A stretch of DNA of 64,000 bases from Curvularia clavata. Taxonomy: Eukaryota. Below the pieces are notes generated by a model, which was given only the letters and a program-made list of their open reading frames with translations, had not been told where the DNA came from and did not search any database. Location: assembly GCA_023920165.1 (NCBI GenBank), contig CP089281.1, positions 62,001 to 126,000 of the forward strand. Reading direction: 5' to 3'. Positions within the stretch are counted from its first letter, which is position 1, and each line of letters begins with the position of its first letter. A program made the position numbers and the translations under genes. Positions 37,846 through 59,421 of the stretch are shown in pieces.

Positions 37846-39350
37846 ATGGCTCCTCAAGATTGCCAAAATTTCCTTACCCCTCTAGCTGAAGGTCTTCGAC
37901 TTTCAGCTACACTCGAAATCAATGAATGGGTTCGCCAAAGGCTTGAGTCTGGTAACAATGTGGTACATTTGGGTTTCGGGGAGGCAACATTCCCAATGCA
38001 GGAGGATGTTCTCCGAACACATCAGGAAGCAAGTAGTGACACTAGCTATCTGCCTGTCGCTGGACTACCAAAATTGAGAGAGGTTAGTTGCGTTTCTCAC
38101 GTTATCAGGATGTCAAATTACTAATATTTGGTGTTCTAGTCAATTGCGCACTTCCAAACTCGCCGTCTTGGGTGTTCAGTAAAGGCTGAACAAGTCGTTG
38201 TTGCACCAGGCTCCAAACCCCTCCTCTTCGCTTTGTTCGATATTCTGAGAGGTGACGTGATGCTTCCCCGCCCATCATGGGTCAGTTATGAGCCTCAAGT
38301 TATGCATGCTGGGAAGAGGGTTTTCTGGGTAGAGACTGACGGACATGACCGTCACACTATCTCTGGTTCGATCTCCTGCACCCTACCACTGGCTAGCTAA
38401 CATATCTAATCTTGATCAAAGCTGCTTCGCTCCTTCAGACATATGAACATGCGGTCAGTAGCGGTGGCAACCCTCGTATCTTGCTGGTCAACAGTCCTTC
38501 GAACCCAACGGGCCAAGCCTTCGACGAAGCGACGGTCAAGACAATTATGTCATTCTGCCACGAGCGAGGGATTACCCTGATTAGTGACGAGATCTATTCC
38601 GACATTGTGTTTTCCACGCATTCTGCTCCCAGCGCTGCTATGAATGGCAATCTTAACAAGAGCCAAATCATCCTTACTGGCGGCCTTTCCAAAGTAGGTA
38701 TATGAGATCGATTATTGGACAAAGCTCATAAAAACCAGACGTATTCAGCTGGCGGTTGGAGAGTCGGCTTTGCCATATTTCCAGACACCCATTTTGGATC
38801 CACTATACAGAAGGCCATTCTTGCTTACGCATCCGAATGCTGGTCTGCAGCATCTGCACCGGCTCAAGCGGCAGCTGCTGTAGCCTTTGATACGACACCT
38901 GAGATGGATTTGTACCGTCAAAAAGTCGTTTCCATACACAGATTTTGTACGATGAAACTGTATCATGCATTGAAAGACTGCGGTCTTGATGTGCCGCAGC
39001 CGAAAGGCGCATTCTATCTTTATCCGTCTTTCCACCCGTATGAAAAGAGCTTGGATGCATTGGGTATCCAGACTAGCGTCCAGTTATCTCGTTGGCTGAT
39101 CGAAAAATGCGGCGTGGCAGCGCTTCCAGGTTCAGCTTTTGGAGAAAACGATAAAGGTATGAAGGGCGGGAGGTATAGACTGCGAATGGCGACAAGCTAC
39201 CTCTACTTCAAGGACCAAGAAGACAGATATAATCGCGGATATGATCTTTTGACTAAGAGTGTGAGCTCTCTGGAAGAGCTGGACCTCAGCTTATTGAACA
39301 CAGCTATTGAGACCATACAGAGGGCTGTCGCAAGATTGAGGGCTCAATGA
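37846..39350 (+). CDS. PLP-dependent class I/II aminotransferase
   Basis: YLPVAGLPKLRE, PGSKP, PSWVSY, NSPSNPTG, ISDEIY and GGLSK|TYSAGGWRVG (PLP Lys). Three introns. Confidence 0.92.
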
Positions 39351-39403
39351 TACAGACTAGTGGTACAATCCTATTAGGGTCTTCTGGACAAATGGCTAAT
39401 GGA

Positions 39404-41763
39404 TCAAGAAGCGTCTTGTAAGTTGGCAATTTGCCCTTCTAGATCAAAGCTTTGGTAGTTTGTTGGAAATTCGTTCTCCAAGCCATGTATGTCCCAGTAC
39501 GTATTCATGAAATCCGCGTCTAAAAATTCGCTGAAAACGGCGAAAGGCTCCCATTCTGTATTTTGAATCTCGTTTGATATGTTGGGTGCGACAGAATGGT
39601 GATCGGGTTCCGTGTTTTTCGTGAATGTTGCGTTCATACGGGTTGTTTGTTCGAGATTCGGTGTATCAATAATTGATGGAGCTTGCCCATTAGGTCTATG
39701 TCTTTCAGCTGCCAGGCCACTTGAGATAGATCTGAGTGTATCATCTGACAATGTTTCGAGCTGGTTTTCAAGCTTAAACAACAAGTCTTCATGCCATCGC
39801 TCGTTCATAATGGCGAGACAGACGGAACATTTTCGACTCCATGAAGCGAGATCAACAAGTAGCAGAGCCATATCAAGTTGCTTGAAATTTGCCCTTGCGC
39901 TGATCAGCATGGTTAAACCTGCCGATACGACACCTTGAACTAGCATCCATGACTGCGGGACGTTACTCGAACGTAAAACTTGGATTACTCTGTCGATATA
40001 AGCGCCAGCTGCACGAATGCAACGATTTAGAGATTCAAGAGAGGGCCGTGCGCAGAGCGGTCCTGTTCTATGAAGTACAAACGTTGTTGAGTGGTAGAGT
40101 CGATCCCAGTAGCTTCATATCATCTCAGCATATACGTCGTAAGTCAAAACGTGGATAGCGTACTTACTACAGCGGATATTGTGACACGGGATTTCTCCTG
40201 AGAACTTGAGAAATGGATGTTCGCCACTGATCTAAATCGCTCTGTAGCTCTGCAAGTAGTGATTGTCTTTGATTCCAGGTCGTGTCGTCGTTGGAGGAAA
40301 CCTGATACATTTTGGAAATAATTTTCCCTTGTATCTGACGATGCTTGATATGGAGAATTCCCAGCTGTGCATCTGGAACATCATTGGGCAATTTTGTGGT
40401 GATGTGTTCGAGACTAATCGACGGAGGCCGGCCAAGATTGTACGCGAGAGTGACTTCTATAGCATACGCCGTCCAAAAAACTCGCCTTCGTTGTTCAATA
40501 TGCTGTTCGGAAGGAAACCAGCGTTTTGAATCATGATGTAGGCCTATTTCTATTGCCATCTGCTCGTGGTCAATGCTTTGGAATAATGTTATTAATGAGG
40601 GAACAGAAGGCTAAACTTACTCGAATAGCCAATCCAGCAAGCTGCCATTGACTAGAACCCACCGGTCCGTACGAGCTGTATATGCAGAATAGAAGCAGCA
40701 TCTGGACGTACTGGATGTTAGCGCTTATGGTTTCCACACATGACTTGAGATGCCCTAGCGAAGCGGCACACAAGGAATCTGCAGAATGGGTCGGCGTGGA
40801 AGTTACTCGATCTACAAGATGGTCGCGCTCCACACGCAACTGTTTGATAGTATTGGAACGATTTGTTGCACCTAGCGCAATGACTATCAACACGATCGTC
40901 ATTTCGATCCTGTCCAAAGGTGGTAGTGCATTGATCTCCGAGAAGTCTTTCGAGAGGTCGTTTCCATGGCGGGCTACGAGATCTCGAAGTGTATCCAACT
41001 CCAGAAGAGGATACAACGGATGCACCCACGTCTCATAAGACTTCAAAAGCAATGCTATCTCATCTCTGTCAAGACTTATATGTATGGCTGACTCGGGGAT
41101 CACACGAGCTGCAGGATCTCTGGCGCCTTCTGCGTGCCCCAGCGTACAAGGCTGTGTTTCACGGCTTGAAGACCGAACAAGGGAAGCTGCGCACGAAGCG
41201 AAAAACGCTCCGCTTGACGCTCCCAAGTATCTGAGCTCACCTGATGCATTCAGAACGAGCAAACTAGCTTCCGACGCTTCATTGACAACAGCAGCATTTG
41301 GTAGAGTGGTGGCCACAGATTGGGAAGCCGAACCAGAGCTATCTGCCAAGAATTGGTTGTCGCCGGGTTGAAAGAGCCCCTGCTCATGGCCGCCCTGTTG
41401 ACTGCGTGTATTCAATGAGGTTCCAGTCGGTAATGAGGTACAATGAATGCCCCACTCTTTCTGTACTTCATCTTCAAGCCACCGGATCCTACTGTGTGCC
41501 TCTTTTAACCTAGAACAGATAGCATTAGCATTTTTCTGTTGCAGAGTAATTACCACAAGCCTCACTGAGAGCTCTCATGTCTCCTTGGCCGTAGGTAAGC
41601 TTCACAGCGTGTATCCGCCTGTCGGCAACTGGAGCAATCAGGATATCCAGAACACTATATCAGTCTGAGTTAGCAACGACATGCTAAGTATAGTTGCGCA
41701 TGCTTGTACCTTGATCTTCTTGCTGTGGCACCGTAGGCACGCTTTGACCTGCGAAGTTGACAT
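39404..41763 (-). CDS. Zn2Cys6 transcription factor 1 with fungal-specific middle homology region (Ppr1/UaY-like architecture)
   Basis: CLRCHSKKIK|CSGYPDCSSC..C cluster split by an intron. LRYLGASSG, MAIEIGLH and RRRVFWTAYAIE...LGRPPSI. Confidence 0.9.
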
Positions 41764-57630: not shown

Positions 57631-58024
57631 GATTGTAAAAAGGTCCACAGCCGATCTCAGTCCTTGGAAATTCTCAAATATGCGAAAAATAAAAGGTTAC
57701 AAAAGCAGGCATGTAAAAGGTCTCCTGGCCAATTGCTTCCTGTACAGAAAGTTGTTGTCAAGCTGCACCGTCCTCGGGGTTCGGCCGACCCCGAAGAGCT
57801 CCTGTTTCTCACCGCTTCTCGCTGAAAGCCTCCACCTCGGCCGAGGACTCTTCATGTCTTTAGATCAATCGAGCAAGTGGTATCGACGACAACAAGGATG
57901 GGGATAACTGAATTATCTCAAACGATCAGACTCAACGTTCGAGGAGGAGATGCATAGCGACTTACAAGAGGCTCGATGGGGATGCCAGTCTTGTTAATAG
58001 TTTGACTCTCCTAATTCGTAACAC

Positions 58025-59421
58025 ATGGGAAAATATTCTTTGCAAACCATGACTATTACCGCTGTCGTCACTGAGGACACTGTTCAGCTCCCTGTCCTCC
58101 AGAAAGTGAAAATGGAGTTACCCCACGGTACCAACACCGATGGCCGAATAGTACCGATCGAACATGGACCACAGAGCAACGTTGATTTTGGGGCTCTGGT
58201 CTATGGCATTGATCTAAACAACTTCACGGACGCCGACTTCGATTTTATTTCTGATGCTCTACATAAGCACAAGCTTCTGGTCTTCAAGGAACAACCAGAG
58301 ATGTTGAAGCCACAACAACAGTACCTCCTGACATCTAACTTCGATCCGGAAGAAAAAACTGGAGGATTTGCACATGGTGTCGACCCGTTTCTTACATCCT
58401 ACAAGGGCGTCAATATTTATGGCATTCCAAAGCGCCCAGCGATCCCAGTACAACCACAGGTGCACCTGTTAGGTCGTGGGCAGCTACCCGAGGACCACTA
58501 TGGGTTCCCACCAGACTTTGAGATCCAAGGAATCGATCACGAGGAATTCCATCTTCCTCCACACGTTTCTGCTGAAGAGCGCGAGGCAGGTGCCAGCAGA
58601 TTCTACCAATGGCACTTTGACGGATCGCTGTACAACATTCCCCCTCCCCGCGTTGGATGTCTCCTTGCTGTCCGGAGCCCTAAAGGCCCAGATGTGACTG
58701 TACGGTGGGATGATGGTACGGGCACCGAGATGAAGATGGCGCCTGGCGCGACCGCCATGGTGGCGGGGTCCAAAGCACTACGGTTACTAGACGACGAGAC
58801 AAGGAACCTAGTCATGCACAGCAGGATCGAGTATGCGCCGCACGCATTCGTATGGATGTCACCTGCTCGCAGCACACGCCTAGGACACTTGATCGAGACC
58901 GAGGGACTAGAAAAGCCGCTCGATCAGCTCCCACCATGGGATTCCAAGAAGGTTTGTGTGTACCCGATGGTGTGGACGAACCCAAAGACAGGAGAGAAGT
59001 CTCTTCAGGTACATGGCCAGGGTGCCTTCAAATTGTATTTGAAGGATAGTCCAGACGGAGAAGAGAAGGTCATCGATGACTTGAAGGAAGTCCGCGCATT
59101 CATGCACAAGTAAGCCTATTGCTCCATCTTCTTGGGCAATTAGACCGAACTCCGTTGCTGACTGTTTCGAATAGACTGATGCGACCAGTATTATCTCCTG
59201 AAAACATCTATGCCCACAGGCATGAAGAGCAAGACGTCATTTTGTGGTACAATAGAGCCCTGTGGCATAGCATTGTGAGTTTCCTTGATGTCCTAATATA
59301 CATTGCAATAGGAACAGAATCTGATCTCTTACATGTCCTATAGACCGAATTTCCAAAGGCGTATGGACCAAGAGTAATGCATCAATGCAATGTTGCTGCT
59401 AGTGATCATCCATCAGGGTAA
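58025..59421 (+). CDS. TauD-family 2-oxoglutarate dioxygenase, XanA-like, copy 2
   Basis: FGALVYGIDLNN, FAHG, FYQWHFDGSLY (HxD), WDDGTG, YAPHAF.W, YPMVWTNPKTGEKS and LWHSI. Introns at about 59110-59174 and 59275-59343. Confidence 0.88.

Follow-up and report, generated by a model that had tools for sequence, protein, structure and literature searches.

XanA of Aspergillus nidulans and its Schizosaccharomyces pombe counterpart, Xan1, belong to a small fungal subfamily of the TauD/TfdA dioxygenases, and we know of no description of a conserved cluster in which xanA is joined to a hydrolase and a regulator. A 2014 review already pointed to paralogs of XanA, "of almost certainly different specificity", in Penicillium and Amorphotheca (PMC5611559), to which no function has been assigned. 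The hxn nicotinate cluster of A. nidulans, in turn, is a catabolic cluster for an N-heterocycle with a pathway-specific regulator, transporters, a 2-oxoglutarate (2OG) dioxygenase and hydrolases/amidases (PMC5746545), and its genes are co-induced and conserved, with some gained or lost (PMC5746545, PMC9304392). Here we describe a 64-kb stretch of Curvularia clavata DNA (contig CP089281.1, positions 62,001 to 126,000; hereafter the window) in which two XanA-family genes, TauD1 and TauD2, lie with an alpha/beta hydrolase gene (HYD), a Zn2Cys6 transcription factor gene (TF2), an NCS1 permease gene and a third, CmcJ-like, oxygenase gene. In our judgment window positions 48.2–59.7 kb probably represent one copy of a conserved, apparently co-regulated cluster of filamentous ascomycetes, which would belong with the fungal catabolic clusters that have their own Zn2Cys6 regulator for the pathway. 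This is smaller than the cluster proposed in an initial annotation of the DNA, which had taken in the whole interval 37846–59421.

A metagenome scan by TauD1 alignment gave 80 loci, and the 14 closest-matching of these were probed by tblastn with the window proteins. TauD1 and TauD2 adjoin in seven of the 14 (L003, L004, L005, L006, L007, L016, and L017), separated by at most about 5 kb; of the remaining seven loci, five are of 2.4 kb or less, too short for any neighbor, and two (L008 and L009) hold a partnerless TauD1-like gene that is 47% identical. HYD is divergent from TauD2 in six of the seven paired loci, and the seventh, L007, begins inside TauD2, so that its HYD arrangement cannot be judged. 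A TF2 ortholog was found in the cluster in four paired loci (L003, L005, L016, and L017), the other three ending too early. Named species give the same picture, with neighboring TauD1/TauD2 locus tags, one to four apart, in seven of the eight species that have positional tags for both genes: Neoarthrinium (012335/012339), Magnaporthiopsis (07266/07268), Verticillium albo-atrum (009562/009560), Kalmusia (010568/010569), Fusarium sp. DS 682 (006272/006270), Meristemomyces (008289/008291), and Pyrenophora teres (08087/08088). The eighth species, Teratosphaeriaceae sp. CCFEE 6253, has the two genes on different small contigs, and at least 12 further species carry both on equal-sized contigs, which gives no distance.

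On these alignments the invariant core comprises TauD1, TauD2, HYD (divergent from TauD2), and TF2, and the Fur-type NCS1 importer and the CmcJ/NvfI-type oxygenase appear as lineage-specific additions to it. The co-location in other genomes that had been anticipated for the whole interval was therefore kept by these four genes but not by its aminotransferase, first Zn2Cys6 factor (TF1), amidase and CmcJ-like genes; for all of the latter, as for a neighboring O-methyltransferase (OMT) gene and a sulfatase fragment, tblastn found no match (E ≤ 1e-3) in 17 related loci totaling 130 kb.

The second line of evidence is a promoter palindrome. Exact matches to TCGGCCGA number six in the window against 0.79 expected, a count reached by none of 100 shuffles. 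All six lie between 48202 and 59721, and five of them are in core promoters (Table 1). Across eight fungal loci with close TauD1 orthologs (94,853 bases), the 8-mer occurs 22 times where a first-order Markov model predicts 1.5, and none of 200 simulations gave more than 6. All but one of these 22 sites are intergenic, beside TauD1, HYD/TauD2, NCS1, TF2, or an extra oxygenase gene described below; the remaining site is inside an NmrA-like open reading frame (ORF) of L005. No site was found in L008 or L009. When the HYD/TauD2 intergenic regions are read side by side, each contains CTCGGCCGAG-like palindromes, and the intergenic element recurs in L003, L004, L005, L006, and L016, while L017 has it as a 7-mer. 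Relaxing CTCGGCCGAG to allow up to two mismatches gave 25 sites against 23 expected, which is chance level, so only the exact 8-mer is informative. Conserved co-location and a shared cis-regulatory element, two of the marks of a fungal metabolic gene cluster, are both present.

Zn2Cys6 factors typically bind inverted CGG half-sites, which makes TF2 the obvious candidate to bind TCGGCCGA. The sites of UaY/Ppr1-type purine and pyrimidine regulons have the form TCGG-N6-CCGA. If TF2 is the binder, the present cluster would share with these regulons a regulator of the Zn2Cys6 type and, ahead of putative nucleobase-metabolism genes, TCGG/CCGA half-sites in inverted orientation, but its half-sites abut (spacing 0). 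The same 8-base palindrome is known from S. pombe as the meiotic hotspot motif "4156" (5'-TCGGCCGA-3'), whose action has been attributed to a sequence-specific protein not identified as of 2019 (PMC6827382). Organism and assay differ, the S. pombe motif being scored as a recombination hotspot; no connection with XanA-type genes is reported, and the identity may be a coincidence.

Gene content was established from Pfam scans of stop-to-stop ORFs and from intron-aware gene models over the 64-kb window, which is fungal DNA with introns. Every gene that the initial annotation listed was found where it had been placed (Table 1). The arrangement "mostly in divergent pairs" was borne out for three pairs (TF1/amidase, CmcJ-like/TauD1, and HYD/TauD2), but the other junctions are reported as convergent.

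Table 1. Genes, gene relics and palindrome sites in the window (positions counted from its first base)
Feature	Position	Strand	Description
TCGGCCGA site	48202..48209		369 bp upstream of the NCS1 start codon
NCS1 permease (Fur/allantoin-permease-like)	48578-50486	+	4 exons, 581 aa; PF02133
CmcJ/NvfI (AsaB-type) family oxygenase	50791-51776	-	3 exons, 288 aa; NCBIfam NF041278
TCGGCCGA site	51900..51907		CmcJ-like/TauD1 divergent promoter
TCGGCCGA site	52141..52148		CmcJ-like/TauD1 divergent promoter
TauD1, XanA-family Fe(II)/2OG dioxygenase paralog	52373-53676	+	3 exons, 395 aa; WHID...H...R-x3-QAN
TF2, Zn2Cys6 factor	54389-56593	+	about 713 aa; intron position predicted; Cys6 motif visible in exon 1
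HYD, alpha/beta-fold serine hydrolase	56707-57630	-	2 exons, 285 aa; GHSLG nucleophile elbow; Pfam Abhydrolase_1/6
TCGGCCGA site	57781..57788		HYD/TauD2 divergent promoter
TCGGCCGA site, full CTCGGCCGAG	57837..57844		HYD/TauD2 divergent promoter
TauD2, XanA-family Fe(II)/2OG dioxygenase paralog	58049-59421	+	3 exons, 412 aa; QPQ...WHFD...H...R-x3-QCN; 59421 is the stop
TCGGCCGA site (sixth)	59714..59721		3' region between convergent TauD2 and OMT; not a promoter
OMT (O-methyltransferase)	about 59769-61151	-	just beyond the interval 37846-59421
Class I/II aminotransferase	37846-39350	+	37846 is the ATG, the start given in the initial annotation
TF1, Zn2Cys6/Fungal_trans factor	about 39404-41763	-	Pfam and gene model
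Amidase, FAAH/AmdS-like	42004-43740	+	538 aa; PF01425, 301 bits
Sulfatase relic	45.0-46.15 kb		PF00884 pieces at 45040-45258 and 45675-46148, in different frames
HR-PKS (highly reducing polyketide synthase; KS-AT-DH-ER-KR-ACP)	about 20.0-27.3 kb	+	Pfam domains

Both TauD genes fall within the XanA family, as first annotated. PF02668 scores 72.2 bits on a TauD1 exon and 58.8 bits on a TauD2 exon against a gathering cut-off of 27. With XanA both proteins share an HxD...H triad, an Arg placed 12 residues past the distal His and, at the C-terminus, R-x3-Q-x-N; the triad and the Arg are intact in both and invariant in the family alignments. In single-exon searches, orthologs of TauD1 are 64–80% identical in named species of Sordariomycetes, Dothideomycetes, and Eurotiomycetes, with one further match at 96%, and those of TauD2 are 67–91% identical, exon 1 of TauD2 being 91% identical to the 412-aa Verruconis gallopava protein PV09_04522. 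The named matches to the two genes together span Dothideomycetes, Sordariomycetes, Eurotiomycetes, and Leotiomycetes. The family is small, with 609 matches at E ≤ 1e-3 among 1.84 billion representatives.

Such kinship could mean that TauD2 is simply the ordinary xanthine dioxygenase (XanA) of the organism and that the locus is part of standard purine utilization. Many orthologs are indeed annotated as "alpha-ketoglutarate dependent xanthine dioxygenase", and TauD2 has QPQ, E-E, and R-x3-QCN motifs, but the annotation is by similarity only. In the mutagenesis work of the Hausinger group, the pocket residues of A. nidulans XanA are reportedly Q99, Q101, E137, D138, H149, D151, H340, R352, Q356, C357, and N358. 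Among the nearest full-length relatives outside the TauD1 and TauD2 clades is a 382-aa Colletotrichum protein, P0254, which we take to fit all of these positions and their spacing (His-to-His 191, E-D). TauD2 is about 42% identical to this XanA-type protein and retains Q-P-Q and Q-C-N, but it has E-E in place of E-D and a His-to-His distance of 196, five longer. TauD1 has V-E-N for Q-P-Q, E-E for E-D, and Q-A-N for Q-C-N, and so neither protein has the full set of these XanA pocket residues with their reported spacing. Nor is A. nidulans xanA, to our knowledge, described as clustered with genes such as these.

The species distribution also speaks against an ordinary XanA. No protein of a model species (A. 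nidulans, Neurospora crassa, Fusarium graminearum, etc.) is among the 120 of 153 TauD2 matches listed, in which minor Aspergillus species appear at 67–74% identity, and there is likewise none among the 120 matches listed in each of two further family searches (with TauD1 and P0108). The 2014 review names JGI 142784 as the XanA ortholog of Amorphotheca resinae (PMC5611559), whereas the A. resinae match in the TauD2 clade is tagged 50709. With moderate confidence, we regard TauD1 and TauD2 as XanA-family paralogs and not XanA itself, and identity of TauD2 with the ordinary XanA as quite improbable. P0108 had been considered as a canonical XanA reference, but proved to be a rare TauD2-like paralog with two members, and the names available for 10 family representatives included no characterized XanA. 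Outside the ascomycetes, the basidiomycete yeast Rhodosporidiobolus azoricus has two XanA-family paralogs (P0253 and P0394) three locus tags apart on one contig, so pairing of paralogs may predate, or recur outside, the ascomycetes.

An AlphaFold model of a TauD2 ortholog (pLDDT 86.3) has the TauD fold, with Escherichia coli TauD (1os7) as its best Foldseek match (E 2.6e-16). It matches the structures of TauD, RdpA/AAD, and ScoE at 14–19% identity, and no solved structure closer than these was found. The solved members nearest the model are taurine and phenoxyalkanoate dioxygenases, and the NCS1 gene has a sulfatase fragment 2 kb upstream of it. Both observations would suit enzymes acting on a compound other than a heterocycle (sulfonates, sulfate esters, betaines, or amino-acid derivatives) in a cluster for the scavenging of sulfur or of something else. 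By sequence, though, the enzymes fall within the small XanA family, and TauD2 retains the QPQ and QCN motifs, reportedly substrate residues in XanA. The sulfatase pieces, being in different frames, look like a pseudogene relic, which moreover lacks TCGGCCGA, and the known substrates of NCS1 carriers are nucleobase-like compounds and vitamins. We therefore consider a scavenging role of this type unlikely.

The permease is well supported as a member of NCS1, with PF02133 scores of 72.9 and 143.9 bits (cut-off 23.5) and a TIGR00800 score of 167 bits on exon 3; only an N-terminal motif and weak matches to allantoin permeases suggest the Fur rather than the Fcy branch. The third oxygenase proved CmcJ/NvfI-like, in agreement with the initial annotation: NF041278 gives 64.6 bits (E 1e-17) on exon 2 and 48.1 bits (E 1e-12) on exon 3, a sum of 112.7 bits against a whole-protein cut-off of 80 that each exon alone does not reach. 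The protein has weak matches to NvfI in the PDB and is distant from that enzyme. Counted among the oxygenases of the pathway in the initial annotation, it is specific to this lineage; L005 (8476–9558) and L016 (11794–12810) carry a DIOX_N/2OG-FeII_Oxy oxygenase gene beside TauD1 in its stead. The TCGGCCGA-bearing promoter of this extra oxygenase gene is common with TauD1 in L005 and with NCS1 in L016. A relationship of the L016 enzyme to thymine 7-hydroxylase (T7H) was considered and rejected, as T7H came only eighth among its matches (E 1.6e-35), behind other fungal oxygenases.

The models nearest to HYD are enol-lactonases of the PcaD type, far below their cut-off, and by sequence HYD is a generic PcaD-like serine hydrolase. 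A parallel with the bacterial Rut pathway had been drawn, and it holds at the level of logic, with a transporter, oxygenase attack on a ring, and an alpha/beta hydrolase (RutD). The enzyme families differ, however, with no counterpart of RutA, RutB, RutC, or RutF here, and the RutD model TIGR03611 scores only 20.2–20.6 bits on the exons of the window HYD and 44 bits on its L017 ortholog against a cut-off of 238.5. The hxn cluster differs as well, since it has a molybdenum-cofactor hydroxylase, the DIOX_N/2OG-FeII_Oxy dioxygenase HxnY, major facilitator superfamily (MFS) transporters, and a Cys2His2 regulator (PMC5746545), none of which is present in the core described here.

Transcription was assessed with contigs from three runs (X1, X2, and X8), whose label as RNA is a guess. 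Introns with GT..AG ends (CT..AC for minus-strand genes) are missing from the contigs, which therefore contain spliced RNA. The contigs bridge all three NCS1 introns (X1 and X2), both introns of the CmcJ-like gene (X1, X2, and X8), and both introns of TauD1 (X2 and X8), so that these three genes are transcribed and spliced in the window. Contig depths over the three genes are about 56–87 in X2 (amidase about 8–12) and about 1–13 in X1 (amidase 11–15), figures that cannot be used to rank genes. TF2, HYD, and TauD2 have little or no cover in the three runs, which is no evidence of silence. One X2 contig joins 52307 to 52382 (GT..AG), removing the predicted TauD1 start codon at 52373; it may reflect an alternative 5' exon or a different TauD1 start.

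The combination of an importer, an in-cluster regulator of the pathway type, several oxygenases, a hydrolase, and XanA kinship with no core synthase favors catabolism or detoxification over biosynthesis, and to this extent the catabolic character first suggested for the locus is upheld. Most likely the cluster would serve, when induced, to take up a heterocycle resembling xanthine or uracil and to degrade it by oxidation; the substrates first suggested, a methylxanthine, a methylated pyrimidine, or a hydantoin-like compound, are conjectural. TF2 would bind the palindrome and switch the genes on in response to the substrate, and the permease would import an oxo-N-heterocycle related to xanthine, uracil, or hydantoin. 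Successive oxidation of the imported ring, by hydroxylation or N-demethylation, would be the task of the dioxygenases, and HYD would open or trim the oxidized product, the outcome being either entry of nitrogen into general metabolism or removal of a toxic compound.

A more specific version of this role, which we hold to be improbable, is an undescribed eukaryotic oxidative route for pyrimidines or their nucleosides, in which the XanA-type dioxygenases would attack the uracil or thymine ring or the sugar, the lactone or oxidized ring so formed would be opened by the PcaD-like hydrolase, and a new Zn2Cys6 factor would read TCGG/CCGA half-sites at zero spacing. Pyrimidine nucleoside 2'- and 1'-hydroxylases are known from the biochemistry of Rhodotorula and Neurospora, and under such a route the dioxygenases could be these never-cloned fungal enzymes. 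The family of TF2-type factors might then also include the binder of the S. pombe hotspot motif 4156.

Searches of the openly available full-text literature found neither the cluster described nor the motif reported as a promoter element in fungi, and the view that the cluster is undescribed stands within that scope. In several classes of ascomycetes, two XanA-family paralogs of this kind stay together in the company of a hydrolase and a regulator, under one precise promoter palindrome. What had been a vague annotation thereby becomes a testable unit of one regulator, one 8-base site, and three to five enzymes. Should the substrate be a pyrimidine, a methylated purine, or a plant heterocycle, the cluster would represent a new eukaryotic catabolic pathway, and also a new reaction class for the XanA family.

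Several observations weigh against a co-regulated cluster for the breakdown of a heterocycle. TF2 is a candidate regulator of the cluster, acting via the palindrome, by co-occurrence alone; TCGGCCGA was not found in the upstream region of TF2 itself in the window, and one of the six window sites is outside any promoter. Among the contigs listed from the three runs, none with a splice joint covers TF2, HYD, or TauD2, and the introns of these genes are therefore predictions, introns 2 and 3 of TauD2 being placed by ortholog alignment only. The distinction of TauD1 and TauD2 from XanA draws on the residue numbers reported for XanA and on the species in the match lists. Identity of 42% to a XanA-type sequence does not fix a purine-like substrate, and the TauD superfamily acts also on sulfonates, sulfate esters, amino acids, and betaines. 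The relatives of HYD in PDB, NCBIfam, and ESM Atlas look-ups are uninformative, being generic alpha/beta hydrolases. The NCS1 gene is in the cluster in only two of the seven paired loci (L016 and L017), at 30–44% identity per aligned segment, and with identity so low it may have been recruited independently.

The probable cluster at 48.2–59.7 kb can be set against a single nine-gene pathway spanning 21.6 kb, with ring opening by amidase and hydrolase and recovery of nitrogen by the aminotransferase. All of these genes lie within 22 kb, amidases and aminotransferases are plausible as downstream enzymes, and the amidase is transcribed and spliced, RNA contigs bridging its two short 5' introns (42207–42281 and 42304–42348). 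The window scan, however, found no TCGGCCGA near the aminotransferase, TF1, or amidase genes, and these are also the genes without a match in the related loci. A gene-poor stretch of about 4.5 kb (43800–48200), which contains the sulfatase fragments, splits the amidase and NCS1 genes into two blocks, the first of which has a Zn2Cys6 factor of its own. The amidase is, moreover, of a general FAAH/AmdS type, its nearest solved relatives being fatty-acid amide hydrolases. A nine-gene pathway is thus very unlikely, and the ring opening by amidase and nitrogen recovery by transaminase that had been proposed lose their footing. Having neither the motif nor a match in any of the related loci, the aminotransferase, TF1, amidase, and OMT genes are probably neighbors and not members of the cluster, and the first three may form a small unit of their own. 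Two introns of the OMT gene are bridged by RNA contigs, and an RNA contig of the OMT transcript spans the sixth TCGGCCGA site (59714..59721).

The original statement that the locus has no polyketide synthase (PKS), nonribosomal peptide synthetase, or terpene core is correct for 37846–59421 on the Pfam scan, but an HR-PKS lies elsewhere in the same window. This synthase, 10 kb upstream, raises the alternative that the genes are accessory or tailoring genes of a secondary-metabolite cluster, whether that of the HR-PKS or a small core-less cluster modifying nucleobases. In its favor are the P450s, FAD oxidases, and UstYa gene that accompany the HR-PKS at 10–34 kb, the frequent use of 2OG oxygenases as tailoring enzymes, and the prevalence of CmcJ/NvfI and O-methyltransferase families in fungal biosynthetic clusters. 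Yet the core recurs in five loci (L003, L005, L006, L016, and L017), three of which hold 10 kb on a flank, where a scan of ORFs of 110 aa or more showed no PKS domain, and TCGGCCGA is absent from the PKS region in the window scan. The transporter is of the NCS1 importer type and not an MFS or ATP-binding cassette exporter, and OMT is not conserved with the core. A part in secondary metabolism accordingly seems very improbable, and catabolism or detoxification remains the favored reading of the cluster.

The region at window positions 10000–34000 is a separate secondary-metabolite cluster built around the HR-PKS, which is flanked by two P450s, a short-chain dehydrogenase/reductase, BBE/FAD oxidases, an ankyrin protein, an alpha/beta hydrolase, and the UstYa-family gene. 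An amino-acid permease gene is present at 7.3–9.0 kb of the window.

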